From contig NZ_PSNW01000007.1 of assembly GCF_002930645.1 (NCBI RefSeq), forward strand, positions 225,792 through 249,791: 24,000 nt of DNA. The letters are read 5' to 3'. This stretch comes from Solimonas fluminis (GTDB lineage: Bacteria; Pseudomonadota; Gammaproteobacteria; Nevskiales; Nevskiaceae). A model generated the notes under the pieces. That model was given only the letters and a program-made list of their open reading frames with translations, ran no database searches and was not told where the DNA came from. Numbering within the stretch: the first letter of the stretch is position 1; each line of letters begins with the position of its first letter. The translations under genes and the position numbers were made by a program. Shown in pieces: positions 2,871 to 22,866 of the stretch.

Positions 2871-3726
2871 CACCGACGCGCTGTACCGCTCCCTGCCGGT
2901 GCGCGAGCTGGCGCTCGGCGATGCGAGCCTGCCCTACCGCTGCCATGGCAGCGGCCCCGACCTGCTGCTGGTGCACGGCTTTCCGCTGTCCGGCTACACC
3001 TGGCGCCACGTGCTGCCGGGACTCGCGCAAAGACACCGCTGCCATCTCGTCGACCTGGCCGGCCTCGGCGGCTCGCGCTGGGACGAAGGGACCGACTTCA
3101 GCTTCGAGGGCCACGCCCGCCGCCTGAAGGCGCTGGTGGACCAGCTCGGCCTGCCGCGCTACGACCTGCTCGCCCAGGACACGGGCGCCACCGTCACGCG
3201 CTGCCTCGCTCTGATGGATCCGCCGCGCGCGCGGCGCCAGGTGATGATCAACACCGAGATTCCCGGACACCGTCCGCCGTGGATCGTGGAGTACCAGGCC
3301 CTGATGCGCCTGCCCTTCACGCCGGCGCTGTTCCGGCTGCTGCTGAAATCGCGGAGCTTCCTGCGCTCCGGCATGGCCTTCGGCGGCTGCTTCGGCAACC
3401 TGGACCTGATCGACGGCGACTTCCACCGCGAGTTCGTGCAGCCCTGCATCGACCGACGGCGCCGCATGGAAGGCCTGCGCGACTACCTGACCGGCGCCAA
3501 CTGGCCCACGGTGGATGCCTTCGCCACGCGCCACGCCGAGTTCCGCGAGCCGGTGCTGCTGCTCTGGGGCGAGGACGATCCCACCTTCCCGCTGCGGCGC
3601 GCGAAAGCGATGCTGCCGCAGTTCCGCGACGCGCGGATGGTGACGATCGCGGATGCGAAGCTGCTGCCGCAGGAAGAGAAGCCGGCCGAGGTGGCGAAGG
3701 CGGTACTGGAGTTCCTGGCGGCCTGA
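2863..3726 (+). CDS. Alpha/beta-fold protein of the epoxide-hydrolase / haloalkane-dehalogenase type (Asp nucleophile), apparently lacking the catalytic His
   Basis: This is the C-terminal 287 codons of the 531-aa track ORF. An in-frame GTG at 2863 follows GGAGAA (2850-2855) and overlaps the upstream stop by 8 nt. Motifs present: LLLVHGFPLSGYTWR (HGxP oxyanion motif), LLAQDTGA (Sm-x-Asp-x-Sm elbow, Asp codon 3178-3180) and LLLWGEDDP. Where GHF(L)QEE is expected the protein reads DAKLLPQEEKP, and there is no His in the last ~60 residues. Confidence 0.8.
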   Translation: MPDTDALYRSLPVRELALGDASLPYRCHGSGPDLLLVHGFPLSGYTWRHVLPGLAQRHRCHLVDLAGLGGSRWDEGTDFSFEGHARRLKALVDQLGLPRYDLLAQDTGATVTRCLALMDPPRARRQVMINTEIPGHRPPWIVEYQALMRLPFTPALFRLLLKSRSFLRSGMAFGGCFGNLDLIDGDFHREFVQPCIDRRRRMEGLRDYLTGANWPTVDAFATRHAEFREPVLLLWGEDDPTFPLRRAKAMLPQFRDARMVTIADAKLLPQEEKPAEVAKAVLEFLAA

Positions 3727-3730
3727 GCCG
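3681..3730 (+). repeat. Direct repeat copy A (last 14 codons + stop + 4 nt of the hydrolase gene)
   Basis: gccggccgaggtggcgaaggcggtactggagttcctggcggcctgagccg aligns without gaps to 6384-6433, with 45/50 identical by my count. Confidence 0.8.
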
Positions 3731-4041
3731 GCAACTCGCGCATGGCGCGTGGGAATCCGGCGGCAACGGCGATGACGGGCCGCCGATTCGGGCGCTGAAG
3801 CTCCGCCTGGACCGCATCGGAAACCTGCGGCGGTTCATCGGCGCGGGGCCGTCGCCAGCCCGATCCAGCGCATCGGGGTCGCCAACGGCGTAGCCGCCCC
3901 CGTGCGCGCATCGCGTGGGGGGCCTGGTGCGCGGGCCCGGCACGTCCTTCATGCGGATCACGGCGCGCGCCCGCTTCTTCCGGACCCGGATGGCGCGGAT
4001 CGTGTCCATGGCCCCGGCCTTGCCGCCGGGCCGAGGCCGCG

Positions 4042-4080
4042 CCATGCGCCCGCGCCGGGGGCGCATGGGTTCGTGCTTTT
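4042..4080 (+). terminator. Possible intrinsic terminator / insulating hairpin upstream of the TetR cassette
   Basis: A perfect 10-bp inverted repeat, CCATGCGCCC (4042-4051) / GGGCGCATGG (4059-4068), has a 7-nt loop. It is followed by gttcgtgCTTTT (T-run at 4077-4080). It lies 316 nt after the nearest upstream stop, so its role is uncertain. Confidence 0.3.
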
Positions 4081-4122
4081 CCCCTGGGGAAGCCTGCAGG
4101 GAGGAACTGCAGCCCCATTTTG

Positions 4123-4149
4123 TTGACAATGTTAAGTTAATGCTGTCAA
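4123..4149 (+). promoter_or_regulatory. Palindromic operator (probable TetR autoregulatory site) overlapping a -35-like TTGACA
   Basis: TTGACAatgTTAAgTTAAtgcTGTCAA pairs at 10 of 13 positions around centre 4136. It is an AT-rich island in GC-rich DNA and ends 8 nt before the TetR ATG. The geometry TTGACA (4123-4128), 17 nt, TCAACT (4146-4151), 6 nt, A4158 would put the transcription start on the ATG. Confidence 0.45.
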
Positions 4150-4157
4150 CTTAATGT

Positions 4158-4835
4158 ATGGCCAGAAAGAAATTCCCGGACGAGGTGCGCGCGCGCAAGC
4201 GTGACGAAATCCTCGATGTCGCCATGACGGTATTCGAGACCGATGGCCTGGACGCATTGAGCTTTCGGCGCCTGGCCGACGGCATGGACCTGAGCCACTC
4301 CGCGCCGTATCGCTACTTCGCCAGCAAGGAGGCGCTGGTCAACGCGCTGCGCGCCCGCGCCTACCGCTGGATCGAGCGCGAGATGCTGGATGCCATCGCC
4401 GGCATCCGCGATCCGGAACAGCAGCTGGAAGCCTTGGCGGCCGCGTACATCCGCTCCGGCCTGGCGCGGCCGCATCGCTACGCGCTGATGTTCTTCAACC
4501 TCAATGATGCCGCCACGCTGCGCGACTTTCCGGAGCTGGAAGCCGCCAAGCGCGATGCGCTGGACGTGTGCACGCGGGTGATTGCGGCCGGACAGCAGCA
4601 TGGTGATTTTCCCAGGACCATCGACCCGCTCACCGCCGCGCACCTGTTCTGGATGGGCGCGCATGGCCTGGTGTCGCTGCAGGTGGCCGGGCAGTTCGTG
4701 ATGGGTCGCGAGGTGCAGCAGCTGGCGCCCGCGCTGATCCAGACGCTGCGCACGGGCATGGACCATTTCAAACCGACCGCCAGGCCTAGGCCCATGAGCA
4801 AGGCAGCGGGAGCAAAGGAGAGATCTCGTGGCTGA
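4158..4835 (+). CDS. TetR/AcrR-family transcriptional repressor
   Basis: 225-aa ORF. The N-terminus RKRDEILDVAMTVFETDGLDALSFRRLADGMDLSHSAPYRYFASKEALVNAL is a canonical TetR_N HTH. There is no Shine-Dalgarno before the ATG (possible leaderless mRNA). Confidence 0.9.
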   Translation: MARKKFPDEVRARKRDEILDVAMTVFETDGLDALSFRRLADGMDLSHSAPYRYFASKEALVNALRARAYRWIEREMLDAIAGIRDPEQQLEALAAAYIRSGLARPHRYALMFFNLNDAATLRDFPELEAAKRDALDVCTRVIAAGQQHGDFPRTIDPLTAAHLFWMGAHGLVSLQVAGQFVMGREVQQLAPALIQTLRTGMDHFKPTARPRPMSKAAGAKERSRG

Positions 4836-5775
4836 GAGCGAACCATCCGCCGGGCACCGCAGCAAGATCGTGCCGCTGCCCAGGCGCGTTCCCTTCCAGT
4901 TCCCGGACGATGTGCAGCCGCGCTGGAAGGCGTCCGACCCGGAATTCTGCGCCATGGTCAACGGCGCTTCGCTGAGCATGCCGTATCTGGAGCCGTTCCT
5001 GATCCGCACCGTACGCGAGGCCAGTGCCGGCATCGACGACGCGTTCCTGCAGGCGTCCGCAAGCGCCTTCAATCAGCAGGAGCAGCAGCACTTCCAGACG
5101 CATCGCCGCTTCAATGAGCTGCTCAAGGCCAAGGGCTACGCCGAGCTGGCCCGCATCGAGCAGGACATGCAGGCCTACTACACGCGCATGGCCCGCAAAA
5201 GCCTGCGCACGCGCATGGCCTACACCGCCGGTTTCGAAGCCATGACCCTGGGGGTGACGCGCTGGCTGGTGGAAAACCGCGTGCGCCTGTTCGGTGGCGG
5301 CGATACGCGGGTGGCGTCCTTCATCCTGTGGCATTTCGTCGAGGAGTCGGAGCACAAATGTGTGGCGCACGACATCTATGGGGCAGCCTTCGGCTCCGGC
5401 CCCGGCGCCTATTTCGCGCGCATGCTGGGGGTGTTTCACGGCTCGCTGAGCGTGATGCGGTTTTCCATGCGCGGCTACAAGGCGATCCTGCAGAAGGATG
5501 GCCTTTGGCGCAGCCTGCGCTCGCGCCTGCGCCTGGCCGCGCACCTGGGTTCCTTCGTGCGCACCGTGGCGCCGTATCTGCTGCGCGCCACGCTGCCGGG
5601 CCACCATCCGCGCCGCGAGCCCGATCCACAATGGGTGCAGGACTGGATCGCCGGCTATGCCGCGAATCCGCGCGACACCGCGCCGCTGCTCGATACCACG
5701 CATCCGCTGATGCCGGTCCCGTTCCAACCCTTGCCGTCACCACCGCGCGCGGCAACGACCGTGCATCGTTTGTAA
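4828..5775 (+). CDS. PF10118-like 'predicted metal-dependent hydrolase' family protein (residue pattern also compatible with a diiron-carboxylate site)
   Basis: 315-aa ORF. GTG start at 4828 with AAGGAG at 4815-4820, overlapping the TetR stop by 8 nt. SLSMPYLEPFLIRTV...FNQQEQQHFQTHRRFNELL...ILWHFVEESEHKCVAHD resembles the conserved blocks of the Metal_hydrol family as I remember them. Confidence 0.7.
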   Translation: MAESEPSAGHRSKIVPLPRRVPFQFPDDVQPRWKASDPEFCAMVNGASLSMPYLEPFLIRTVREASAGIDDAFLQASASAFNQQEQQHFQTHRRFNELLKAKGYAELARIEQDMQAYYTRMARKSLRTRMAYTAGFEAMTLGVTRWLVENRVRLFGGGDTRVASFILWHFVEESEHKCVAHDIYGAAFGSGPGAYFARMLGVFHGSLSVMRFSMRGYKAILQKDGLWRSLRSRLRLAAHLGSFVRTVAPYLLRATLPGHHPRREPDPQWVQDWIAGYAANPRDTAPLLDTTHPLMPVPFQPLPSPPRAATTVHRL

Positions 5776-5799
5776 CAGCCACTTTCGGGGAGTAGCCAC

Positions 5800-6285
5800 A
5801 TGAGCAGCCACGACGAACTCAAGCCTTGTCGCCAGCAACTGGTCGGTCACGGTGCGCTGATGATCTTCTGCGCCGGCGTGATCGGCTTCGGCTTCCTGTT
5901 CTTCCTGATCGGCAGCATCAAGCTCTGGCCGATTCCCGGCGAGATCGACATCAAGCTGCCCGGCAGCTATGACGACTGGCGCATGGCGCACATGGAGGCG
6001 GTGGTCAACGGCGCGATCATGTGGATCATGGCCGCGATCCTGCCGCTGCTGCCGTTCTCGCCCGCCGGCCAGCGGCGTGCCGCCCACGGCATGATCGTCG
6101 TCGCCTGGACTTTCGTCATCGCTTCGGCCATGAAGCCGCTGTTCCCCAACAGCCGCGGCCTGGCGGCCAGTGACCTCGTCAGCAACAACATCGTGTTCGG
6201 CCTGTTCTACGTGGGAGTGGTGCTGGTGATGCTGATCATGGGCCTGATCGCGTATCGCTCGCTGCGCGGCGACAAGGCCGCCTGA
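5800..6285 (+). CDS. Styrene-oxide isomerase (StyC/SOI)-like small haem-binding integral membrane protein
   Basis: 161-aa ORF with about 4 TM segments and GGGGAG at 5787-5792. It aligns along its whole length with Pseudomonas StyC as recalled: GHGALMIFCAGVIGFGF vs GHGILMIFCTLLFGVGL; IPGEIDIKLPGSYDDWRMAHMEAVVNGAIM vs IPGYIIEFHVPGSPEGWARAHSGPALNGMMV; NSRGL vs NRGL. The equivalents of the haem-ligand His (H64, codon 5989-5991) and Asn (N70, 6007-6009) are conserved with identical spacing. Confidence 0.65.
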   Translation: MSSHDELKPCRQQLVGHGALMIFCAGVIGFGFLFFLIGSIKLWPIPGEIDIKLPGSYDDWRMAHMEAVVNGAIMWIMAAILPLLPFSPAGQRRAAHGMIVVAWTFVIASAMKPLFPNSRGLAASDLVSNNIVFGLFYVGVVLVMLIMGLIAYRSLRGDKAA

Positions 6286-6329
6286 GGCGATAAGCCTCAC
6301 CTGGTCTCGCCGGCGCCGGATTCCGGCCG

Positions 6330-6429
6330 CGCGCGCCTGCGGCGGCTGACGACCTCGGGCGCCAGGCGGCTGCCGCAGCAGGGGCCGGCGGAGGTGGCGA
6401 AAGCGGTGCTGGAGTTCCTGGTGGGCTGA
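6330..6429 (+). pseudogene. Decayed 3' fragment of an alpha/beta-hydrolase paralogous to 2863-3726
   Basis: 6301-6429 translates to ...GARRLPQQGPAEVAKAVLEFLVG*, compared with ...DAKLLPQEEKPAEVAKAVLEFLAA* in the intact gene. Nucleotide similarity continues upstream (ggctgacgacctcgggcgccaggcggctgccgcag vs ggtgacgatcgcggatgcgaagctgctgccgcag) with an indel. The open frame from 6286 has no start codon. The 5' boundary is approximate. Confidence 0.6.
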
Positions 6430-6433
6430 GCCG
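6384..6433 (+). repeat. Direct repeat copy B
   Basis: gccggcggaggtggcgaaagcggtgctggagttcctggtgggctgagccg is the partner of 3681-3730. Confidence 0.8.
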
Positions 6434-6447
6434 CGGGCCTGCTGGCC

Positions 6448-7497
6448 CTAGCCACGCAGCCGGTATTCGCCCGGCGGCAGGCCGGTCCAAGTCTTGAACG
6501 CGGCGGTGAAGGCGCTCTGGCCGCTGTAGCCCAGCAGCATCGCGATGTCGCCCAGCCCCAGTCCGGGGTCGGCAAGGTACTGCAGCGCCAGCTCGCGCCG
6601 CTGCTGCGCGAGCAGGTCGGCGTAGGAGTGCCCCTCTGCCTCCAGCCGCCGCCGCAGCGTGCGGTCGCTCAGGCCCAGCAGGCCGGCCACCTCGGCGGAG
6701 GACGGGCTGCCATGCGGCAGGCGCTGGCGGATGGCGCCGGCCACGCGCGGCGCCAGCCCCGTCCCGCGGATCTCGCGCAGCCGCTCGCGCGCCTGCTGCT
6801 CCATCAGCCCGCGCAGTTCCTCGTCGTGCTGCACCAGCGGCGTGGCGAACAGGCCGACGTCGAAGCTCAATGCATTGTCCGGCTCGTCGAATCGCAGCGG
6901 GCAGCCGAAGAAGCGCTCGTAGGGCTGCAGGCCGGCGGGACGCGGATGCTGGAAGCAGGCGCCGAGCAGTTCGCCGCGGATGCCGCTGATCCAGCGGCCG
7001 AAGGCGAGCCAGCCGGCGACGATGGCCTCGTTGACCGGCCGCATGCGCGCCACGTCGGCGGCGCCGGACTGCCAGGCCAGGCGCACCTGCCGCCCCTGCA
7101 CCGTCACCCGCGTGCTGCCGCCGTCGTAGACCAGGCCTTCGTAGCGGGGGATCAGCGCCACCGCCTCGCCGAGGGTGCTGCAGCTCATCGCGGCATAGCC
7201 CAGGGCGCTGAAGGTCCGCGGCCGCACCTGCATGCCCATGTGCAGGCCGATGGAGTCGTCGCCGCTGAGTTCCTGCGCCAGGTCGAACAGGCGCAGCAGC
7301 CCGGCGATGTCGAGGCGCCAGGCCGGGTCGGACAGGCGCTCCGGCAGAAGGGCCGCACGCTGCAGCAGGCGCTCGCGCCCGGCACCCTGCGCCACCGCCG
7401 CATCGAGCAGGGCCTGCACATAGGCGGCCGATACCGAGCCCAGGGCGAGCCCGCCCTGGCCGGCTTTCTCAAAACCCTGGCCGTCCGTCGCTACCAC
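6448..7497 (-). CDS. AraC-family transcriptional regulator (AraC-type ligand-binding N-domain + HTH)
   Basis: 349-aa ORF with a GTG start at 7497. The C-terminus LSDRTLRRRLEAEGHSYADLLAQQRRELALQYLADPGLGLGDIAMLLGYSGQSAFTAAFKTWTGLPPGEYR is a canonical AraC HTH. The gene is divergent (56-bp gap) from 7554-9834. Confidence 0.85.
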   Translation of the reverse strand: MVATDGQGFEKAGQGGLALGSVSAAYVQALLDAAVAQGAGRERLLQRAALLPERLSDPAWRLDIAGLLRLFDLAQELSGDDSIGLHMGMQVRPRTFSALGYAAMSCSTLGEAVALIPRYEGLVYDGGSTRVTVQGRQVRLAWQSGAADVARMRPVNEAIVAGWLAFGRWISGIRGELLGACFQHPRPAGLQPYERFFGCPLRFDEPDNALSFDVGLFATPLVQHDEELRGLMEQQARERLREIRGTGLAPRVAGAIRQRLPHGSPSSAEVAGLLGLSDRTLRRRLEAEGHSYADLLAQQRRELALQYLADPGLGLGDIAMLLGYSGQSAFTAAFKTWTGLPPGEYRLRG

Positions 7498-7553
7498 TGT
7501 GCGCCGCCACCCCTCCAGAATCGTGCCGGTACGTCGCCAGCCCGAGAATCTCC

Positions 7554-8192
7554 ATGCCGCATGCCGAGTCCGCCGCCCTTGCCCTGGGCATCCTGCGCGA
7601 TCCCGCGCAGTTCAAATGGTATGTGATTCCGCTGCTGCTGCTCACCCTCCATGTCTATGCCCAGCAGGTCCATGCGCGGCGCTGGCCGGTGGTGCTGGGC
7701 GGCCTGGCGTTCTGGCTGATGGACTGGATCAACGAGATCTGGAACGCGCTGGTGTTCCACTTCACGCAGTTCGCGCCGGTCTGGGGTGCACCGGGCGATA
7801 CCGCCTTCCTGATCCTGATCGGCCTCAACATCGAGATCAGCCTGATGTTCGCCGTGTTCGGCGTCACCGCGATCCTGCTGCTGCCGGCGGACCCCAGGCT
7901 GAAGCTGTTCGGCATCAACAACCGACTGCTGGCCGCGGCGCTCAACTCGGTCCTGGCGGTCGGCGTGGAGTGCTGGCTCAACCACGCCGGCGCACTGACC
8001 TGGGAATACCGCTGGTGGAACGGCTCGGCGCCCTGGCTGATCTGGCTGATCGGCTACCTGCCGTTCTTCCTGGTCGCCTACTGGGTGCACGACCTGCCGG
8101 ACAGGCGCCGGCAGCTGCGCGCGGTCGGCACGCTGGGCGGCATCGTGGCCGGCAGCCTGCTGCTGTTCGGCGCCCTGCTGGGCTGGATCTGA
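7554..8192 (+). CDS. Integral membrane protein (about 6 TM, Trp-rich), function unknown
   Basis: 212-aa ORF with hydrophobic segments (VIPLLLLTLHVYA, VVLGGLAFWLMDWI, AFLILIGLNIEISLMFAVFGVTAILLL, LLAAALNSVLAVGVECWL, WLIWLIGYLPFFLVAYWV, LGGIVAGSLLLFGALLGWI). Its stop is 1 nt before the next gene's start. I recognise no family. Confidence 0.75.
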   Translation: MPHAESAALALGILRDPAQFKWYVIPLLLLTLHVYAQQVHARRWPVVLGGLAFWLMDWINEIWNALVFHFTQFAPVWGAPGDTAFLILIGLNIEISLMFAVFGVTAILLLPADPRLKLFGINNRLLAAALNSVLAVGVECWLNHAGALTWEYRWWNGSAPWLIWLIGYLPFFLVAYWVHDLPDRRRQLRAVGTLGGIVAGSLLLFGALLGWI

Positions 8193-8193
8193 C

Positions 8194-9834
8194 GTGCGCC
8201 GCCTTCCCGCGTTCGCCGCCGCCCTGCTGCTCGCCGCCTGCGGCAGCAGCACGGCCCCCGATGCCGGCCACGGCACGCCGCCGCCCTTCCAGCCGGGCCC
8301 CGACGCGCCGTTCGCGACCATCGCCGACCCCTCGCTGTCGCTGCCGCTCTGCATCCTGCCGGCCGGCACGATCGGCGTGCCGGACCTCGTGGTCGACCCG
8401 CTGCCGATCCCGGACCGCGGCAACGGCCTGGCCGCCGATGCCGCCAGCGAGGCCCCGGCCGCGCTGCCCGCGCAGCTCGCGCTGCGCAACGACCGCGGGA
8501 CCTACAACCGCCGCTACCAGTTCGCGCTGGACGAAGGGGCGATCTGGTTCAAGTCCAACACCGCCGTGACCGGCATCGAGCAGCCCTGGGCGCGGCTGGC
8601 GATGCCGGGCTGCCTCGCCGGCACCGTCATCGGCATCGCCGTGGACGACGACGAGCTCACCGCGATCCGCGCCGATGGCGCGATCTACGGCATGGACAAC
8701 GCCTTCAAGGACTACGCGCTGTTCAACTGGAGCTCGCGCTGGGGACCGCCGCTGTGGACCGGCACCGGTCACCGCATCCCGGCGGACTACCTGGCCTGGT
8801 CCTGGAGCGTGATCTCGCCGGCCGAGGACCAGCACTGGACCGACCCGGCCGGCAACCTGCACACCATCGGCAGCGGCAAGGTCTCGCACATCTGGCTGCT
8901 GCGCAGCGGCGGCCAGCGCTACACCTACGTCGATCCCTGGCTGCCGCGCGACGACAGCTACGAGATGTGCGGCCCGCTGCGCGGCCGCTACCGCGGCGTG
9001 AATCTCTCGGCCAGCGGCTCCACGGTCTTCACCGTCAACCGCTACGGCGATCTCTACACGCGCAACTACGACTTCGACCTCTGCGGCGCCGACCCGCTGT
9101 TCTTCGACTACGCCTACGAGGACCAGCGCGGGGTCTCCAACCCGAAGATCCAGCTGCCGACCTTCGAATGGCAGCGCCAGCCGAAGATCCCTGGCACGAT
9201 CACCCACGACATCAGCGTGCACAAGAGCGGCATCGACATGCTGACGCGCAGCCTGCGCGTCGAGGGCCGCGATGCCCGGGGCCATACCGGCTACTGGGAG
9301 AAGGATTACCGCGAACTGGACGCCCGGGCCTGGAAGTTCGTGCGCACCGACCAGCCGCTGCGCGGCACGGTGCTGGACAACCGCCCCCGCGACAGTTCCC
9401 TGGACGACGCCGGCCCCGGCGAGGACCGCTATTACGCGCGCAATCTCGCGCAGCTGCCGTCGCTGGCGGCGCACCCCCAGGTCGCCGGCGATGCCGACTG
9501 GGCGGGCGAACTGCCGGACTTCAACTTCTACTGCTCGCCGGCGCGGCTGCGCATCCGCTTCTCGCCCACCGAGGACCTGGAGCTGCTGCTGCACCACACC
9601 GACACGATCCGCCAGACCGAGCGCGGCCGCGGGCTGGACCAGCAGCCGCGCGCCTTCGTCGGCAGCATCGAGATTCCGGAACCGACCTTTGCACGGCTGG
9701 ATTCGCTGCCGCCGAAGTCGCAGCAGTTCATCCAGCTCTACCTGGACGGGCGGCGCCACACCAGCGTCAGGCTCAGCGGCGTCGAGGACCGCATCAGCGT
9801 CACCAGCTTCGGCTGGGAGTTCGAGCGCCCCTGA
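8194..9834 (+). CDS. Large lipoprotein, function unknown
   Basis: 546-aa ORF. GTG at 8194 lies 1 nt after the upstream TGA (translational coupling). The N-terminus MRRLPAFAAALLLAACGSS has a signal peptide and lipobox L-A-A-C, with Gly at +2. The mature part is rich in W/Y/D/R with recurring short blocks (IWFKSN, AIYGMDN, IWLLRSGG, LYTRNYDFD, GYWEKDY). I recognise no domain. Confidence 0.8.
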   Translation: MRRLPAFAAALLLAACGSSTAPDAGHGTPPPFQPGPDAPFATIADPSLSLPLCILPAGTIGVPDLVVDPLPIPDRGNGLAADAASEAPAALPAQLALRNDRGTYNRRYQFALDEGAIWFKSNTAVTGIEQPWARLAMPGCLAGTVIGIAVDDDELTAIRADGAIYGMDNAFKDYALFNWSSRWGPPLWTGTGHRIPADYLAWSWSVISPAEDQHWTDPAGNLHTIGSGKVSHIWLLRSGGQRYTYVDPWLPRDDSYEMCGPLRGRYRGVNLSASGSTVFTVNRYGDLYTRNYDFDLCGADPLFFDYAYEDQRGVSNPKIQLPTFEWQRQPKIPGTITHDISVHKSGIDMLTRSLRVEGRDARGHTGYWEKDYRELDARAWKFVRTDQPLRGTVLDNRPRDSSLDDAGPGEDRYYARNLAQLPSLAAHPQVAGDADWAGELPDFNFYCSPARLRIRFSPTEDLELLLHHTDTIRQTERGRGLDQQPRAFVGSIEIPEPTFARLDSLPPKSQQFIQLYLDGRRHTSVRLSGVEDRISVTSFGWEFERP

Positions 9835-15909: not shown

Positions 15910-17147
15910 TACGGGGATGGCTCCCGCGGCTGTTCCTTCCACTCCTTCAGCCGCCGCTCGCGCCGCTGCTTCAGGGCCTCGCCGATGGCCGCGCCGCTGA
16001 TGCCGTCGGCCATCACCTGCGCCGCCTGGATCTCGCTGGCCGCGACGCGCGCCGCGCGCAGGTAGTCGGCCTGCTCGTAGTGGCTGTGCTCGAAGCCGAG
16101 GCGCCCGCGCGCATCGCAGACGCTGGCCTGCAGCACCTGCTCGAAGCGCTCGCCCTTGGCGAAGGCCCCGGTGCGCTCCAGCAGGCCCAGCAGGGTGGAC
16201 GGCCGCAGCTGCAGCGCCTGGTGGATGACCAGGTGCTCCCGGGTATGCACCAGCGCCAGGTCGCGGCAGGCGGAGGGCACGCGCAGGCGCTCGCTGAAGC
16301 GCTCCACCAGCGGCACGCCGCGCAGGTCGTGCATGCGGTGGCTGGGCCACTCCTCCGGCGGGGTGGCGCCCTTGCCGAGGTCGTGCACCAGCACGGCGTA
16401 GCGCACCTCCAGCGGCAGCCCCAGCCGCGCCGAAGTGTCCAGGCACATCAGCACGTGCACCAGCGTATCCACCTCGGGGTGGTAGTCGGCACGCTGCGGC
16501 ACGCCGTGCAGCGCCGCCAGCTCCGGCATGATCCGCGCCAGCGCGCCGCAGTCCTGGAGCGTGCGAAAGTAGGTGCCCGGCGACTCCGTCATCAGGCCCT
16601 TCTTCGTCTCCTGCCAGACGCGCTCCGGCACCAGGTGGTCGACCTCGCCGCTGTCCACCATCCGGCGCATCAGCGCCAGGGTCTCGTCCGCCACGCGGAA
16701 GCCCAGCGGCGCGAAACGCGCATGGAAGCGGGCCACGCGCAGGATGCGCACCGGGTCCTCGCAGAAGGCCTCGGACACATGGCGCAGCAGGCGCGCATCG
16801 AGATCGCGGCGGCCGCCGTAGGGATCGACCAGGACTCCGTCGTCGCCGCGGGCGATGGCGTTGACGGTCAGGTCGCGGCGGACCAGGTCGTCCTCCAGCG
16901 TCACTTCCGGCCCGGTGTGGAAGCTGAAGCCGCGGTAGCCGGGCGCGGTCTTGCGCTCGGTGCGCGCCAGCGCGTGCTCTTCCCTGGTCTGCGGGTGCAG
17001 GAACACCGGGAAGTCCTTGCCCACCGGCTGGTAGCCCGCCGCCCCCATCTCCTCGGGCGTGGCGCCGACGACGACCCAGTCGCGCTCGCGCACCGGCAGC
17101 CCGAGCAGTTCGTCGCGGACGGCGCCGCCTACGAGATAGCGCTTCAT
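15909..17147 (-). CDS. cca: Multifunctional CCA-adding enzyme (tRNA nucleotidyltransferase with HD phosphohydrolase domain)
   Basis: 412-aa ORF. MKRYLVGGAVRDELLG...RDLTVNA is the class-II nucleotidyltransferase head, and VLVHDLGK is the HD domain. AAGGA overlaps the upstream stop 10 nt before the ATG. Confidence 0.95.
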   Translation of the reverse strand: MKRYLVGGAVRDELLGLPVRERDWVVVGATPEEMGAAGYQPVGKDFPVFLHPQTREEHALARTERKTAPGYRGFSFHTGPEVTLEDDLVRRDLTVNAIARGDDGVLVDPYGGRRDLDARLLRHVSEAFCEDPVRILRVARFHARFAPLGFRVADETLALMRRMVDSGEVDHLVPERVWQETKKGLMTESPGTYFRTLQDCGALARIMPELAALHGVPQRADYHPEVDTLVHVLMCLDTSARLGLPLEVRYAVLVHDLGKGATPPEEWPSHRMHDLRGVPLVERFSERLRVPSACRDLALVHTREHLVIHQALQLRPSTLLGLLERTGAFAKGERFEQVLQASVCDARGRLGFEHSHYEQADYLRAARVAASEIQAAQVMADGISGAAIGEALKQRRERRLKEWKEQPREPSP

Positions 17148-17157
17148 CGCGGGTCCT

Positions 17158-19158
17158 TCACACGCAGCCCGGGCTGCCCTTGAGGCAGGCCGCGGCGGCC
17201 GGCGTCGGCACCGAGACCGGCAGCAGCAGGTTGCTTGCGTCCTGCGGCTCGCCGCTGGCCAGCCAGCCGTCGGCGGTGATGTGCCAGACGATCTTCTGGA
17301 TGTAGCCGCGGGTCTCGTTGTAGGGCACGTTCTCGATCCAGACGTCGGCGTCCCGGGGCTCTTGCGGCAGCCAGCGCGCCACGGCGTTGGGCCCGGCGTT
17401 GTAGGCGCCCAGCGTCAGGATGAAGCGGCCGCCGAAGCGGTCGGTCTGGTCGCGCAGGTAGGCGGCGCCCAGCGGCACGTTGATCGCGGGGTCGAACAGC
17501 GACTCGCGCGTCGGCACCGGCTGCTTCCACTTGCGCGCCACCTGCTGCGCGGTGGGCAGCAGCAGCTGCAGCAGGCCCAGCGCCTGAGAGCGCGACACCG
17601 CGGTGGGCAGGAACAGGCTCTCCTGGCGCATCACGCCGTAGATCCAGGGCCCCGGGATACCGGCGAACTTGGCCCCCGCCTCGATCTCCCGGGTGAAGGC
17701 CTGCGGATACAGCAGCGTCAGGTCCCGCGTCAGGTTCATCTGGTTGAGCATGCTGACGGTCTGGATGTGCCAGCCCCAGGCCGAGGCCAGGCGCGCGGCC
17801 TGCACGCGCGTCAGCTCGTCGGCACCCTGCAGCGCCGCGCGCCACTCGGCGCCGGCCAAGTCGGTGCGCTCGATCAGGAACAGCTCGCGGGCACGCTGCA
17901 TCTCCGGGCGCGCCATCAGTTGCTGCTGCAGGCCTTCGTCCGCCACCAGCTTCTGCGAGACCGGCACCAGCTTCTTCTGCAGGCGCCAGGCGGAGAGCAC
18001 GGCGTAGTAGCCGTTTTCCTGCATCAGCGTGTTGTAGATCGGCTCGGCCTGGGCGCGGCGGCCCAGCGTCTCCAGCGCGCGGGCGCGCCAGTAGCTCCAG
18101 CGCGGCTCGGCGGCCTGCGCCGGCGGCATGGCGTGCAGCCATTGCGCGGCCAACTCCCACTGGCCCTGCCACAGCGCCGCGCGCACGCGCCATTCGTGCG
18201 CCTTGTCGTCCAGGGCGTCGTCCGGCACCAGCTTGTACAGCGAGAGCGCTTCGGCGCGGCGGTCCAGCGCGTAACCCATGGCCAGGTCGCGGCGCAGCTC
18301 CGCGATCTGCCGCGCGTCGATGCGGCGGCGCTCGATCATCTTCGGCAGCAGCGGCGCAAGCTCGTCCGGCTTGCCGCGCGCCAGCTTGGCCCAGGCCGCT
18401 TCGAGCGGAGCCCATTCCACCTTCTCCTGCGGCGCGGCGATCAGCGCCTCGATGGCCGGACGCGGCTCGCGCAGCAGGCGCGACCAGTGCTTGAGCGGCG
18501 CGGCCCGCGCGGCGGGCACGCCGCGCAGCAGCCAGTCGGCCAGCTCGGTGTTGCCGGCCTCCAGCGCCAGGCGGGCGCGCTGCTCCAGGCGCTCGGGCGT
18601 CAGCGCGCCGCGCTGCTGCAGCCACTGGAACGGCGGCACGCAGGCCTGCGGCAGCTGCTGGCCGGTCATCCACACGCCCAGGATCTCGTCGCGCAGGCTG
18701 TCCTCGACGCCGCCGGTCTGCAGCCAGGCGTTGTAGCGATGGCAGCGCAGCGCGTCGTCGGCCGCCGCCGGCTCGCTGTTGGCCAGCAGCGTGGTCCATT
18801 GCTGGCGCTCGGCGAGGTTGCCCAGCCAGTCGCGCTGCAGGGCACGCGCGGCCGGCAGCCCGGCGTTGGCGCGCAGCCAGCCGGCGATCTCGGCGTCCAG
18901 GGCCTCGCCCGGGCGGGCCTTGATGGCCTGCCGCAGGCGTGCCGCCTGCAGGTAGGGATAGAGGATGTAGCTGCGCAGGCCCGGGCTCTCGGCGGCCTCG
19001 CCGCCGGCCTCCACGGTCTTCAGGGCGGAGCGGAACTCGACGCGCAGCACGTCGTTGGCGGCCTGGGCGGCGACGGTGCCGCTGAGGCACAAGCACAGAA
19101 GGAATGCGGGCAGACGGAGCATCAGTGGGGGGAGCCTGTTGTAGGATGCGCGCCTCAT
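17158..19158 (-). CDS. slt: Soluble lytic murein transglycosylase (Slt70-like)
   Basis: Long ORF 17158-19206. Signal peptide MLRLPAFLLCLCLSGTVAAQA. A superhelical repeat region is followed by a C-terminal SLT domain (GVMRQESLF, LGLLQLL, AYNAGPNAV). The start is ambiguous: ATG 19158 is chosen, ATG 19122 is equally plausible, and 19206 would overlap the divergent gene. Confidence 0.9.
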   Translation of the reverse strand: MRRASYNRLPPLMLRLPAFLLCLCLSGTVAAQAANDVLRVEFRSALKTVEAGGEAAESPGLRSYILYPYLQAARLRQAIKARPGEALDAEIAGWLRANAGLPAARALQRDWLGNLAERQQWTTLLANSEPAAADDALRCHRYNAWLQTGGVEDSLRDEILGVWMTGQQLPQACVPPFQWLQQRGALTPERLEQRARLALEAGNTELADWLLRGVPAARAAPLKHWSRLLREPRPAIEALIAAPQEKVEWAPLEAAWAKLARGKPDELAPLLPKMIERRRIDARQIAELRRDLAMGYALDRRAEALSLYKLVPDDALDDKAHEWRVRAALWQGQWELAAQWLHAMPPAQAAEPRWSYWRARALETLGRRAQAEPIYNTLMQENGYYAVLSAWRLQKKLVPVSQKLVADEGLQQQLMARPEMQRARELFLIERTDLAGAEWRAALQGADELTRVQAARLASAWGWHIQTVSMLNQMNLTRDLTLLYPQAFTREIEAGAKFAGIPGPWIYGVMRQESLFLPTAVSRSQALGLLQLLLPTAQQVARKWKQPVPTRESLFDPAINVPLGAAYLRDQTDRFGGRFILTLGAYNAGPNAVARWLPQEPRDADVWIENVPYNETRGYIQKIVWHITADGWLASGEPQDASNLLLPVSVPTPAAAACLKGSPGCV

Positions 19159-19189
19159 TGTAGTGCGTGGCTGACTGAGAATTCGCTGA

Positions 19190-19978
19190 ATGGAGTCCCT
19201 GCTCATCTACCTTCTGACCGGCGCCGTGGCCGGATTGCTCGCCGGGCTGTTCGGCATCGGCGGCGGCATGGTGATGGTGCCGGCACTGGCCTTCGTGCTG
19301 CCGGGCCAGGGCGTGCCGCCGGAAGTGACCCTGCAGGTGGCCGTGGCCACCTCGCTGGCGGTGATCTCGGCCACCTCCGTCTCCTCGATGCTGAGCCACC
19401 AGAAGCACGGCGCCGTGGTCTGGCCGGTGTTCCGCTGGATGGCCCTCGGCCTGGTCGCCGGCTCGGTGGGCGGCGCCTTCGTCGCCGACCAGCTCGCCAG
19501 CCGCACGCTGGCGCTGATCGTGGGCTGCGGCGCGCTGGCGGTGGCGGCGCAGATGTTCTTCGACCTCAAGCCGAAGGCCGCGGCGCCGCTGCCCGGCGCG
19601 GCCGGCCTGAGCGCCGCCGGCGGCATCATCGGCCTGCTGTCGGCCCTGGTCGGCATCGGGGGCGGCTCGCTGACGGTGCCCTTCCTGTCCTGGCGCAGCG
19701 TGGACATCCGCAAGGCCGTGGGCACCTCGGCCGCCTGCGGCGTCCCCATCGCCTGGGCCGGGGCCCTCGGCTTCATCCTGTCCGGCTGGGACCGCAGCGA
19801 CCTGCCCTCGCCGCACCTGGGCTACGTCAGCCTGCATGGCTTCATGGGCCTGGCCGTCGCCAGCGTGCTGCTGGCCCCTCTGGGCGCCAGGCTGGCGCAT
19901 CGCCTGCCGCCCCGGCAGCTGAAGCGCGGTTTCGCGCTGCTGCTGACCGGCGTTGGGCTCAAGATGCTGATTGGCTAG
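19190..19978 (+). CDS. TauE/SafE-family anion (sulfite-exporter-type) permease
   Basis: 262-aa ORF with about 8 TM segments. It carries the duplicated motifs GLFGIGGGMVMVPAL and LVGIGGGSLTVPFL that are characteristic of PF01925. Confidence 0.85.
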   Translation: MESLLIYLLTGAVAGLLAGLFGIGGGMVMVPALAFVLPGQGVPPEVTLQVAVATSLAVISATSVSSMLSHQKHGAVVWPVFRWMALGLVAGSVGGAFVADQLASRTLALIVGCGALAVAAQMFFDLKPKAAAPLPGAAGLSAAGGIIGLLSALVGIGGGSLTVPFLSWRSVDIRKAVGTSAACGVPIAWAGALGFILSGWDRSDLPSPHLGYVSLHGFMGLAVASVLLAPLGARLAHRLPPRQLKRGFALLLTGVGLKMLIG

Positions 19979-19995
19979 AATCACGCTGACGGCGA

Positions 19996-20661
19996 TTGCC
20001 GCCGCGCGCGAGAAAAGTCTTGGGTAAACGGGGGTTTGAGCCGGGTGTTGCGGGCGGAGTCCGCCGCAGGGGCAGCGCGCTGCTGCTGGGCCTGCTGCTG
20101 GCCGCCGCCGGCGCCCAGGCCGCCGAGGTCTATGTCTACCGCGAGCCCACCGGCACCCGCCTGTTCACCGACCAGCGCGTACGCGACCCCGCCTACGTGT
20201 TCATCGCCAAGTACGGCCGCCCCACCGCCTACGTCTCCTGCAGGGGCATCAGCGCCGCCGGCCTGGATGCGCGCCTGCGCAGCTACGAGGACCTGATCGA
20301 CAAGTACGCCGCCCAGCAGGGCGTGGAAGCGGCCCTGGTCAAGGCGGTCATGCGCGTCGAATCCTGCTTCGACCACCGTGCCGTGTCGCGCGTCGGCGCA
20401 CGCGGCCTGATGCAGCTGATGCCCGGCACCGCCTCGGACCTCGGCGTGAGCGACAGCTTCGACCCGGCGCAGAACATCCGCGGCGGCGTCACCTACCTGC
20501 GCCTGATGCTGGACCGCTTCGGCAACAACCAGAAGCTGGCCCTGGCCGCCTACAACGCCGGTCCCGGCGCGGTGGAAAAGCACCAGGGCGTACCGCCGTT
20601 CCGGGAAACCCAGGCCTACGTCGAGAAGGTGCGCTCGCACTACGAGCGCTACCGCAGCTAG
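19996..20661 (+). CDS. Secreted lytic transglycosylase (DUF4124-like N-terminus + SLT domain)
   Basis: Signal peptide ...ALLLGLLLAAAGAQA. EVYVYREPTGTRLFTDQ is a DUF4124-like block. SLT catalytic region VMRVESCF..GARGLMQLMP..AAYNAGPGAV. The only in-frame starts are TTG 19996 or TTG 20020, so the start is uncertain. Confidence 0.8.
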   Translation: MPPRARKVLGKRGFEPGVAGGVRRRGSALLLGLLLAAAGAQAAEVYVYREPTGTRLFTDQRVRDPAYVFIAKYGRPTAYVSCRGISAAGLDARLRSYEDLIDKYAAQQGVEAALVKAVMRVESCFDHRAVSRVGARGLMQLMPGTASDLGVSDSFDPAQNIRGGVTYLRLMLDRFGNNQKLALAAYNAGPGAVEKHQGVPPFRETQAYVEKVRSHYERYRS

Positions 20662-21536
20662 CGCGCCTTCAGCACCTCCAGGAACGCCTCCAGCGCCGGA
20701 CTGCGCCAGGCGCTCTTGAGCAGCACGCGGTACAGCGGCCGCCGGATGCGCAGGCCCTTCACCTCCACCACCCGCAGGATGCCGGCCTTCAGCTCGGTGC
20801 GGATCGCCTGGGCCGACAGGAAGGCCAGCGCCACGCCGCCGGCCACGGCGTGCTTGATCGCCTCGGTGCTGGCCAGTGTCATCGCCGGACGCGGGCGGAT
20901 GCCCCGGGCGGCCAGCGCACGCTCGGTGACCGCGCGGGTACCCGAGCCGGGCTCGTGCATCAGCAGCGGATGCTCCGCCAGCGCCGCCAGCGCCAGCGGC
21001 CCGGCCGCGGCCGCCGGATGGCGCGGCGCCGCGATCAGCACCAGCTCGTCCTCGGCGTAGACGCGGTAGTCCAGCTGGTCGCTGCTGACCACGCCCTCGG
21101 CGAAGCCGATGTCGATCTCGCCCGCCAGCAGCTTGGCCTCGATGGCCTGCGTGTTCTCCACCTGCAGCGACAGCTCCACCCCGGGATGGCGGCGGGCGAA
21201 GGCCGCCAGGGTCTCCGGCAGCATGTAGCCGCCGATGGTACGGCTGGCGCCGATGGCCAGGCGCCCCCGCCCCAGTTGCTGCAGGTCGCCCAGCGCCTGG
21301 GCCGCCTCGGCCTCGATCGCGAACAGGCGGTTGGCATAACCCAGCAGCAGCCGGCCCGCCTCGGTCGGCCGCACGCCGCGCGGCAGGCGGTCCAGCAGCA
21401 CCACGCCCAGGGCGCGCTCGAACTCGGCGAGCTGCTTGGACACGGCCGACTGGCTGATGTGCAGCTCGCGCGCACCGCCGCTGACGCTGCCGCTGGCCGC
21501 CACGGCCTGGAAGATGGCGAGATGGTTCAGGTTCAT
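20658..21536 (-). CDS. LysR-family transcriptional regulator
   Basis: ATG 21536 gives MNLNHLAIFQAVAASGSVSGGARELHISQSAVSKQLAEFERALGVVLLDR, a canonical LysR HTH, followed by a substrate-binding domain. The gene is divergent from sat. The 9 extra N-terminal codons in the track ORF (TTG 21563) are unlikely to be real. Confidence 0.9.
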   Translation of the reverse strand: MNLNHLAIFQAVAASGSVSGGARELHISQSAVSKQLAEFERALGVVLLDRLPRGVRPTEAGRLLLGYANRLFAIEAEAAQALGDLQQLGRGRLAIGASRTIGGYMLPETLAAFARRHPGVELSLQVENTQAIEAKLLAGEIDIGFAEGVVSSDQLDYRVYAEDELVLIAAPRHPAAAAGPLALAALAEHPLLMHEPGSGTRAVTERALAARGIRPRPAMTLASTEAIKHAVAGGVALAFLSAQAIRTELKAGILRVVEVKGLRIRRPLYRVLLKSAWRSPALEAFLEVLKAR

Positions 21537-21545
21537 GTCGGGTGA

Positions 21546-21596
21546 TCCATGAATAAAAGTCAACTAAGGCATCTATATATTGCATTTTATTGATGG
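21546..21596. promoter_or_regulatory. AT-rich divergent promoter / LysR-binding region
   Basis: tccatgAATAAAAgtcaactaaggcatctatatattgcaTTTTATTgat is strikingly AT-rich against >70% GC flanks. A 7-bp inverted repeat AATAAAA (21552-21558) / TTTTATT (21585-21591) flanks TATATAT. The position is typical for LysR autoregulation and target activation. Confidence 0.45.
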
Positions 21597-21669
21597 CGGC
21601 GGGAGTGCCTAAAATGCGGGTCCGGCGCGGGACCCGTCCCCGCCGCCCCTCACACAGCTGGAAACGACC

Positions 21670-22866
21670 ATGATCAAGCCCCACGGCTCCGACACCCTGA
21701 ACCCGCGCTTCGTCTACGACACCGCGCGCCACGCCGCCCTGCAGAAGGAAGCCGAGGGCCTGCCGAGCCTGCTGCTGAACTCCGCCGCCGCCGCCAACGC
21801 GGTGATGCTCGGCGCCGGCTACTTCAACCCGCTGACCGGCTACATGAACAAGGCCGACGCGCTGGGCGTGGCCAAGGACCTGAAGACCACCGCCGGCCTG
21901 TTCTGGCCGGTGCCCATCGTCAACCTGACCAAGGAGGCCGGCATCAAGGCCGGCAGCCGCATCGCGCTGCGCGACCCCAACGTCGAAGGCCATCCGGTCC
22001 TGGCGGTGATGGACGTGCAGGCCGTGGAAAGCGTCAGCGACGACGAGCTGCAGTTCATGGCCAAGGAAATCTTCGGCAACCTCGACGCCAAGCACCCGGG
22101 CGTGCAGACCTTCCTGAACCTGGGCAACACCCTGGTCTCGGGCCCGATCGAGGTGCTGAACTTCAGCTACTTCCAGGGCGAGTTCCCGGACACCTTCCGC
22201 ACCGCCGTGGAGATCCGCAACGAGATCAAGGAACGCGGCTGGCAGAAGGTGGTGGCCTTCCAGACCCGCAACCCGATGCACCGCGCGCACGAAGAGCTGT
22301 GCCGCATGGCGCAGGAGCGCCTCCAGGCCGACGGCATCGTCATCCACATGCTGCTGGGCAAGCTCAAGGAAGGCGACATCCCGGCACCGGTGCGCGACGC
22401 CTGCATCCGCACGATGGTGGAGCACTACTTCCCGAAGAACACGGTGATGATCACCGGCTACGGCTTCGACATGCTCTACGCCGGCCCGCGCGAGGCCGTG
22501 CTGCATGCCGTGTTCCGCCAGAACATGGGCGCCAACTACCTGATCGTGGGCCGTGACCATGCCGGCGTGGGCGACTACTACGGCCCCTTCGACGCGCAGA
22601 CCATCTTCGACACCCGCGTGCCGGCCGGCGCGCTGCAGATCGAGATTTTCCGCGCCGACAACACCGCCTACAGCAAGAAGCTGGGCCGCGTGGTGATGAT
22701 GCGCGAAGCCCCGGACCACACGCCGGAAGACTTCATCGCGCTGTCGGGCACCAAGGTGCGCCAGATGCTGGGCCAGGGCATCGCCCCGCCGCCCGAGTTC
22801 TCGCGCCCGGAAGTGGCCAAGGTGCTGATGGAGTACTACCAGCTGGAAGACGCCAAGAAAGCCTGA
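21670..22866 (+). CDS. sat: Sulfate adenylyltransferase (homo-oligomeric ATP sulfurylase)
   Basis: 398-aa ORF carrying the hallmark motifs VAFQTRNPMHRAHEEL and IVGRDHAGVG. Confidence 0.95.
   Translation: MIKPHGSDTLNPRFVYDTARHAALQKEAEGLPSLLLNSAAAANAVMLGAGYFNPLTGYMNKADALGVAKDLKTTAGLFWPVPIVNLTKEAGIKAGSRIALRDPNVEGHPVLAVMDVQAVESVSDDELQFMAKEIFGNLDAKHPGVQTFLNLGNTLVSGPIEVLNFSYFQGEFPDTFRTAVEIRNEIKERGWQKVVAFQTRNPMHRAHEELCRMAQERLQADGIVIHMLLGKLKEGDIPAPVRDACIRTMVEHYFPKNTVMITGYGFDMLYAGPREAVLHAVFRQNMGANYLIVGRDHAGVGDYYGPFDAQTIFDTRVPAGALQIEIFRADNTAYSKKLGRVVMMREAPDHTPEDFIALSGTKVRQMLGQGIAPPPEFSRPEVAKVLMEYYQLEDAKKA

Follow-up and report, generated by a model that had tools for sequence, protein, structure and literature searches.

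In the window analysed here, a stretch of 24,000 nucleotides (nt) from Solimonas fluminis, the open reading frame (ORF) at positions 5800–6285 encodes a small membrane protein, hereafter the query, which is a true but distant homologue of styrene oxide isomerase (SOI; StyC). It is a four-helix inner-membrane protein of the PF26512 superfamily, it is not StyC, and its gene stands directly downstream of one for a protein of the PF10118 family, an arrangement that recurs in distantly related bacteria. To our knowledge, no enzyme other than SOI is known for the Meinwald rearrangement, and only one narrow clade of SOI has been studied; the enzyme is sought after in biocatalysis. The observations reported here indicate that several clades use the SOI fold with a rebuilt pocket, and that three or more of them are linked to a widespread and seemingly misnamed "hydrolase" that resembles a di-iron oxygenase. 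The genes of this locus, in their order, are the following:

4158–4835, + strand: TetR-family regulator gene (TetR_N and TetR_C_33 by Pfam), its stop overlapping the start of the PF10118 gene
4828–5775, + strand: gene for a PF10118 "predicted metal-dependent hydrolase" of 315 amino acids (aa; Pfam E 2.4e-49)
5800–6285, + strand: SOI-like membrane protein gene (ORF call, ATG start, 161 aa)

The first two genes overlap by 8 nt, the second and third are separated by 24 nt, and the sequence GGGGAG is found 9 nt upstream of the ATG of the SOI-like gene.

A first-pass annotation, made from the sequence of this DNA, had proposed that the query is an SOI/StyC homologue, and this proposal is upheld by sequence, profile and fold comparisons alike. 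In a phmmer search against all PDB chains, the query matched SOI (8pnu, E 3.6e-12) and a second SOI (30tw, E 4.6e-12), and beyond these two no noteworthy match was seen; its identity to SOI is about 28%. When a profile of 46 members of the query clade was compared by hhalign with one built from 13 true or Tyr-type SOIs, the two were matched with a probability of 99.85% (E 6.4e-31) and in the same register as by phmmer. The AlphaFold2 model of the query (predicted local distance difference test score, pLDDT, 84.7) consists of four helices, and four transmembrane (TM) helices are predicted at residues 3–35, 57–83, 88–114 and 127–160. The sole significant PDB neighbour of this model in a Foldseek search was 8pnu_A (E 2.8e-7, template modelling scores of 0.78 and 0.81, root-mean-square deviation 2.7 Å over 153 columns). 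The similarity to SOI in both sequence and fold thus extends over the whole length of the protein and includes the four TM helices, PF26512 ("SOI") is annotated on all 120 of the homologues listed, and the homology, as judged from the sequences, is far beyond chance. Ranking after 8PNU in the Foldseek search were the trimeric four-helix MAPEG enzymes (leukotriene C4 synthase and a human microsomal enzyme), with template modelling scores of about 0.5 and non-significant E values of about 1–2; these model-based matches may hint at a distant architectural resemblance. A Pfam match of the query to DUF7220 (E 0.064) was dismissed as meaningless.

The reference SOIs for the comparison of residues are StyC of Pseudomonas sp. 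VLB120 (PDB 8PNU/8PNV), RoSOI1 of Rhodococcus opacus 1CP and ZcSOI of Zavarzinia compransoris. In SOI, hydrogen-bond network 1 is formed by N64, D95, N99 and Y103, of which N64A and D95A are impaired and N99A and Y103A inactive, while in a second network H58 is locked by T20 (PMC11374702). Tyr103 forms a hydrogen bond with the Fe-bound ligand. H58 serves the haem of the neighbouring subunit, and N64 lines the distal pocket (PMC11374702). In RoSOI1, R111 is located at the haem propionate (PMC12502698). The corresponding elements of the query are:

5983–6012, + strand: helix-2 motif R61-M62-A63-H64-M65-E66-...-N70, with His64 as putative axial haem ligand
6100–6126, + strand: helix-3 stripe Val101/Trp103/Phe105/Ser109, equivalent to Asp95/Trp97/Asn99/Tyr103 of SOI (phmmer, hhalign)
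6154–6162, + strand: Arg119-Gly120-Leu121, equivalent to the haem-propionate motif (N)RGL of SOI (alignment to SOI R112)

Numbered codon by codon, His64 is at 5989–5991 (cac), Asn70 at 6007–6009 (aac), Trp103 at 6106–6108 (tgg) and Ser109 at 6124–6126 (tcg). The block WRMAH64MEAVVN70G of the query pairs with WARAH58SGPALN64G of SOI by phmmer, and the hhalign register agrees, so that the H-x5-N spacing and the retention of the haem-ligand His and the Asn, both noted in the first-pass annotation, hold under a formal profile alignment. The segment W103-T-F-V-I-A-S109 pairs without a gap with W97-S-N-V-G-F-Y103 (phmmer), and the single gap that hhalign introduces nearby falls past Ser109 and right ahead of the conserved RGL. 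Three residues of SOI are hence kept (His58 as His64, Asn64 as Asn70 and Arg112, the R111 of RoSOI1, as Arg119), whereas four are replaced: Asp95 by Val101, Asn99 by Phe105, Tyr103 by Ser109 and Thr20 by Ala25. A MAFFT alignment of 208 sequences was set aside, as spurious gaps past Trp103 put Tyr103 of SOI out of line; due to this register error, the pairwise phmmer and hhalign registers and residue counts from the Trp were used instead.

The conservation of these residues was counted over 120 close homologues showing 50–95% identity. W60, M62, H64, E66, N70, W103 and G120 are invariant (120/120), and Arg119, which lies within S-R-G-L, is present in 118 of them. Position 109 is occupied by Ser in 116 sequences and by Ala in the remaining four, position 105 by Ile (67), Phe (51) or Leu (2), and position 101 in the query clade by Val or Ile. 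Based upon helical periodicity (100 degrees per residue), Met62, Glu66 and Asn70 should form one stripe of helix 2 that faces the distal pocket opposite His64, a geometry which fits the published account of the roles of H58 and N64 (PMC11374702), and by the same reasoning V101, F105 and S109 would form the facing stripe on helix 3. Where the pocket of SOI has R56/G60/N64 facing D95/N99/Y103, that of the query would therefore have M62/E66/N70 facing V101/F105/S109. As read from the sequence, the pocket of the query is rebuilt and more hydrophobic, with a single new carboxylate (Glu66) on the other helix. The first-pass annotation had proposed a different substrate pocket upon finding Ser109 in the place of Tyr103; the gapless alignments and the counts above bear out both statements. 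Its focus on Tyr103 was sound as regards the loss of this residue but incomplete, as the change in the pocket is wider and includes D95V, N99F, T20A and the residues Met62 and Glu66; nor did it connect this finding with the conserved PF10118 partner.

That the query is a functional styrene oxide isomerase, i.e., a StyC orthologue acting in styrene catabolism, is highly improbable. SOI structures are its top database matches and the axial His (His64), the Asn of network 1 (Asn70) and the propionate Arg (Arg119) are conserved, but Asn99, Tyr103 and Asp95 are all replaced (by Phe105, Ser109 and Val101, respectively), and SOI is inactivated by N99A as well as by Y103A (PMC11374702). Against the NCBIfam equivalog model for StyC (NF045734), whose curated cut-off is 150 bits, the query scored 50.9 bits (E 1.6e-13). 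The assembly is 100% complete, and both of the SOI-like genes that it contains fall under this cut-off. The substrate-binding domain of StyA (Smoa_sbd, PF17885) had no match in this complete genome, which is weak evidence, as no control genome matched it either. In place of styA, styB or styD, the neighbours of the gene are those for TetR and PF10118. Further, the query belongs to a separate clade (support 100/99; see below), and a locus of this clade in Zavarzinia marina, whose genome has three SOI-superfamily matches, shows a PadR/PF10118 context and no sty operon. The view of the first-pass annotation that this is probably no styrene-oxide enzyme agrees with these results, and styrene oxide is, from the sequence, an unlikely substrate.

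The family to which the query belongs is rare. A HMMER scan of 1.84 billion representatives recovered only 146 clusters (E < 0.001), and a member of the superfamily was present in only 3 of 401 sampled genomes of the same phylum. Two sequence types can be distinguished. In the first, which contains the true SOIs (motif DGWSN.GFY), His-x-Gly is combined with W-x-N-x-x-[FG]-[YF], and in the second M-A-H-[LM]-E is combined with W-x-[N/F/I]-x-x-A-[SA]. None of 30 Glu-type representatives, with Glu at His+2, has Tyr at Trp+6, whereas 34 of 42 Gly-type representatives have this Tyr; the loss of the Tyr goes together with the gain of Glu66. At His-2, the position of Met62, some Glu-type clades have Leu or Phe. 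In a maximum-likelihood tree of 84 rows (LG+C20; support is given as ultrafast bootstrap/SH-aLRT, the latter being the Shimodaira–Hasegawa-like approximate likelihood-ratio test), the true SOIs formed a clade with support of 100/98. They were included in a Tyr-type clade of 35 rows (W-x-N-x-x-F-Y; 100/97), which in turn lay inside the broader His-x-Gly group. The query clade (100/99) was placed among the Glu-type groups; the protein hence lies inside the SOI superfamily and not in an unrelated family, the placement that the first-pass annotation had named as contrary to its proposal. Our search of the literature for surveys of SOI homologues found no study of these clades.

Of 85 loci of the query clade, 74 have a PF10118 gene directly upstream of the SOI-like gene. 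With few exceptions the two genes share one strand, and across these loci their stop and start codons often overlap. The paired loci are from Gamma- and Alphaproteobacteria, Myxococcota, Actinomycetota and one spirochaete metagenome-assembled genome. The 11 exceptions comprise three contig ends, six loci (five of them from Oceanococcus) where a TetR gene is followed by the SOI-like gene without PF10118, and two others. When the neighbouring ORFs were clustered all against all, only regulators were conserved besides PF10118, viz. TetR (39 loci, upstream of the pair), with PadR (10) or MerR-MEDS (10) in its place elsewhere. In a reverse search, a profile of the paired type of PF10118 matched 5 of 400 sampled gammaproteobacterial genomes with E values of 1e-60 or better, and at every locus the SOI-like gene adjoined PF10118 unless a contig end intervened. 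Apparent PF10118–SOI-like fusions at three loci (L013, L023 and L074) were rejected, since they are long spanning ORFs and the two genes are in different frames.

The PF10118 partner resembles a ferritin-like di-metal protein in its sequence pattern and predicted fold. In 32 paired homologues, E55, Q84-E85-x-x-H88, H92, E137, H169, E172-E173-x-E175-H176 and D182 are invariant, and in sequence E55/E85xxH88/E137/E173xxH176 constitutes the E/ExxH/E/ExxH layout of the ferritin-like di-iron carboxylate proteins. By sequence, no meaningful match of this protein to the PDB was obtained. Its AlphaFold2 model (pLDDT 93) is all helical, and the top 50 PDB fold matches of this model are all di-iron or di-manganese carboxylate proteins, among them CmlI, the R2 subunit of ribonucleotide reductase (RNR R2), acyl-ACP desaturase, AurF, R2lox and toluene monooxygenase. 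The partner resembles CmlI, AurF, R2lox, acyl-ACP desaturase and RNR R2 in its helical bundle and its ligand layout; it differs from these di-iron or Mn/Fe proteins in that the structural similarity is weak (E 0.06 or worse, template modelling score about 0.45), and also in its dedicated neighbour, a membrane protein and putative haem protein, and in a conserved proline-rich C-terminal tail:

5683–5724, + strand: conserved C-terminal tail PLLDTTHPLMPVPF of the partner (residues 286–299), outside the Pfam domain and kept in paired homologues

The paired PF10118 proteins carry this tail in the form DPxW..W...PL(L/V)DTxxPxMPVPF, whereas six unpaired paralogues of the same genome are without it; the same tail is found on the PF10118 partner of a Tyr-retaining SOI-like protein (L123). 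It may serve as a docking element. The 4.7-Mb genome has eight PF10118 genes, of which only that at 4828–5775 is paired with an SOI-like gene, the seven others adjoining neither of the two SOI-like genes present. The paralogues at loci L087–L093 and L109–L115 indicate that the family is expanded in this genome. One unpaired paralogue (L110, 4425–5264) is part of an operon for a short-chain dehydrogenase/reductase (SDR), a patatin-like lipase, a flavoprotein of the flavin-containing or Baeyer–Villiger monooxygenase (FMO/BVMO) type and PF10118. Searches of the literature for PF10118, PF26512, COG3687, IPR016516, UCP07580 and PIRSF007580 found nothing functional or relevant.

The SOI-like genes that adjoin PF10118 in the reverse search and in metagenome contigs come from more than the query clade. 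Gly-type proteins which keep the Phe-Tyr (W-S-F-T-V-F-Y; G522, G687 and P0156) are also adjacent to PF10118, as are those of a third clade (W-[LM]-F-T-L-P-A; G457 and P0161), and in the tree these three PF10118-paired clades are separate, with support values of 100/99, 100/100 and 100/96. At Trp+2, the position of Asn99 in SOI, 23 of the 84 rows have a hydrophobic residue (Phe/Ile), a trait for which the tree calls for three changes or more. Each of the three clades has one or more members with an adjacent PF10118 gene, and in the query clade most loci do, the main exception being the Oceanococcus subgroup; the query has both a tailed PF10118 partner and Phe105 at Trp+2. The rows of Asn99 type whose context is known have other partners or none: they are the true SOIs (by the literature), SnoaL-linked copies, two relatives linked to monooxygenases dependent on flavin adenine dinucleotide (FAD), a gene that stands alone, and the second copies which Nevskiales have downstream of the pair. 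For P0131, P0130, P0214 and P0177, the contigs were too short to be informative. It is thus the loss of Asn99, rather than that of Tyr103, which appears to track the partnership with PF10118, the traits having been mapped from alignment columns with three contrasts only, too few for a significance test. According to the tree, the partnership would occur in three SOI lineages that are separate from one another and in all of which Asn99 is changed to Phe or Ile, and in the query lineage a Glu of helix 2 would replace the catalytic Tyr.

In relation to the known SOIs, the query shares the four-helix fold, the register of the axial His, the Asn at His+6, the central Trp of helix 3 and the arginine of (N)RGL, as well as its small size (161 versus 169 aa) and a gene position beside an enzyme of oxygen-activating type. 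It differs from them in that its partner is a ferritin-like PF10118 protein in place of the flavin epoxidase StyA/StyB, in lacking a dehydrogenase of the StyD type, and in the new invariant residues Met62 and Glu66. The logic of styABCD, where an epoxidase is followed by an isomerase and then by an aldehyde dehydrogenase, is partly recognizable here in an oxygenase-type gene located directly beside that of a membrane protein with the SOI fold, the two having a regulator of their own, although the candidate oxygenase is from an unrelated and uncharacterised family and the dehydrogenase step is missing. Two relatives of the query (at L095 and at L107 of genome G263) do have FAD monooxygenase and aldehyde dehydrogenase neighbours. 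In the operon at L107 (2777–7634), the genes for an SRPBCC protein, an SOI-like protein, an FAD monooxygenase, a SnoaL protein and an aldehyde dehydrogenase are found, with a divergent TetR gene, and the SOI-like protein is of the Glu type (WVMAHLE..GWGNVIAA), with Ala at the position of Tyr103. This operon mirrors styA/styC/styD with different parts and suggests by analogy that Tyr-less members can still be isomerases. Similarly, the gene of another Glu-type relative (P0129) is translationally coupled, by an overlap with its stop, to that of an FAD monooxygenase which has a squalene-epoxidase-like region. The L107 protein is possibly a better first test than the query for isomerase activity of Tyr-less SOI-like proteins.

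Based upon these results, the reading that we favour, tentatively and at slightly less than an even chance, is that the query is an SOI-like haem Lewis-acid isomerase which acts on a non-styrene product of its PF10118 partner. Haem binding and the Lewis-acid role are proposed from the conservation of His64 and Arg119 and by analogy with SOI. The protein would be the membrane half of a two-gene module repressed by TetR, and as in SOI it would form a trimer with ferric haem b at the subunit interfaces. The partner, a putative ferritin-like di-metal protein that is probably O2-activating, would dock via its subfamily-specific C-terminal tail, oxidise a hydrophobic substrate other than styrene and deliver an oxygenated intermediate (in the simplest case an epoxide) into the haem pocket. 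In this pocket Glu66, Asn70 and Ser109 would position the intermediate, Glu66 (with Met62) probably taking over the hydrogen-bonding role of Tyr103/Asn99, and Fe(III), acting as a Lewis acid, would rearrange it to a carbonyl compound. A more specific form of this proposal, a flavin-free two-component membrane system in which a di-iron oxygenase docks onto a trimeric haem-b Lewis-acid isomerase and a hydrophobic substrate, of alkene type or a lipid, is turned into a carbonyl compound, is less probable and, taken as a whole, unlikely.

Several observations weigh against the isomerase proposal. N99A and Y103A each abolish activity in SOI and both positions are changed here, so that the SOI mechanism is not simply transferable to the query. 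No conserved reductase, ferredoxin or aldehyde dehydrogenase was found beside the pair by the clustering of neighbouring ORFs, which leaves the electron source and the fate of the carbonyl compound unexplained. The fold matches of PF10118 are weak (best E 0.06) and the family bears the name "hydrolase", and the flavoprotein-linked unpaired paralogue would also suit an ester hydrolase. Some of the same observations are accounted for if the query is instead a redox or anchor partner: a small membrane cytochrome b with a six-coordinate haem (perhaps His64 and, on the neighbouring pocket face, Met62), which supplies the di-iron partner with electrons from the quinol pool and holds it at the membrane without isomerising anything, the pair being then a self-sufficient oxidase or oxygenase. 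We regard this main rival as doubtful, and as less probable than the isomerase proposal. The absence of a conserved reductase or ferredoxin gene beside the pair and the loss of two residues essential for SOI catalysis (PMC11374702) would be as expected, as would the invariance of Met62 (120/120) on what helical periodicity makes a distal-pocket stripe with Glu66 and Asn70; the frequent overlap of stop and start codons and the pairing-specific tail of the partner suggest a stoichiometric complex, and it has been proposed that SOI itself anchors enzymes of its pathway to the membrane (PMC12502698). However, the Met at His-2 is replaced by Leu or Phe in some Glu-type clades as noted above, and the Tyr-retaining PF10118-paired clade has Arg at this position, so that a His/Met haem is not general to the partners of PF10118. 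The seven other PF10118 paralogues of the genome have no adjoining SOI-like gene, and the sole known function of the superfamily is a non-redox one.

It may also be considered that the partner is a true di-metal hydrolase and that the genes, under the control of TetR, form a cassette to detoxify an epoxide, ester or lactone which is produced elsewhere. The SOI-like protein might, for instance, bind a lipid or act as an epoxide isomerase, and PF10118 might hydrolyse a related product. The Pfam/COG family name, the operon in which an unpaired paralogue accompanies an SDR, a patatin and an FMO/BVMO-like flavoprotein, the TetR, PadR or MerR-MEDS regulators, which fit a xenobiotic response, and the alpha/beta-hydrolase genes just upstream in the window are all in keeping with such a role. 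The E/ExxH/E/ExxH ligands and the nearest folds (CmlI, R2, acyl-ACP desaturase, AurF and R2lox) are, however, those of proteins of O2 or radical chemistry and not of hydrolases, and the synteny of the cassette with Solimonas aquatica does not extend to the hydrolase genes that flank it; this explanation is hence improbable. Should the oxygenase–isomerase proposal prove true, it would widen the range of epoxides open to biocatalysis and give PF10118 its first function, and it would mean that a Glu on the adjacent helix can stand in for the essential Tyr and Asn. Were the haem a redox centre instead, the fold of a Lewis-acid haem enzyme would have been re-used as a cytochrome.

The second SOI-like gene of the genome is on another contig (C30, locus L005, 1438–2885). 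Its product, also of 161 aa, has the motifs WRRAHLG and GWANTLGF, with Phe at the position of Tyr103; a gene for a 322-aa SnoaL-domain protein follows directly and a TetR gene faces it, and the same pairing is seen in Oceanococcus (L003). In many Nevskiales (L001, L007–L012, L014, L016, L017 and others), including S. aquatica, a second SOI-like gene is located right after the pair, and this downstream copy has about 30% identity and is of the Gly/Ala type (WRVAHVA/GWGNTVFF). The window has no second SOI-like gene in this place and has an opposite-strand AraC gene there instead.

The surroundings of the cassette contain three further features:

4116–4156, no strand assigned: imperfect palindrome with 20-nt arms, 75% complementary, core TTGACAATGTTAA / TTAATGCTGTCAA (repeat search)
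3663–3730, + strand: left copy of a 68-nt direct repeat, at the 3' end of an alpha/beta-hydrolase gene, 81% identical to the right copy
6366–6433, + strand: right copy of this repeat, a stump of the 3' end of the hydrolase gene, 81% identical to the left copy

The palindrome ends 1 nt before the TetR start, leaving little room for a leader, and is a likely candidate operator. A consensus scan found no sigma-70-like promoter and one terminator-like hairpin, which lies inside the 3' end of the PF10118 gene and is at chance level. The 68-nt repeats bracket a spacer and the TetR/PF10118/SOI-like cassette. The closest relative is Solimonas aquatica (91% amino-acid identity), the DNA similarity to this species is confined to 3807–6342, and the G+C content is 64–67.5% inside the cassette segment as against 70–75% outside; from its sequence the cassette looks to have been inserted or relocated.

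Elsewhere in the window, two adjacent ORFs of 946 and 912 aa (17144–22719, – strand) are without a Pfam match at E 0.001. The region at 6448–9834 contains the AraC-type regulator, whose best NCBIfam matches (GliR/QhpR) are below cut-off, divergent from two genes of no Pfam or NCBIfam family that lie one base apart and encode a Trp-rich membrane protein of 212 aa and a protein of 546 aa.

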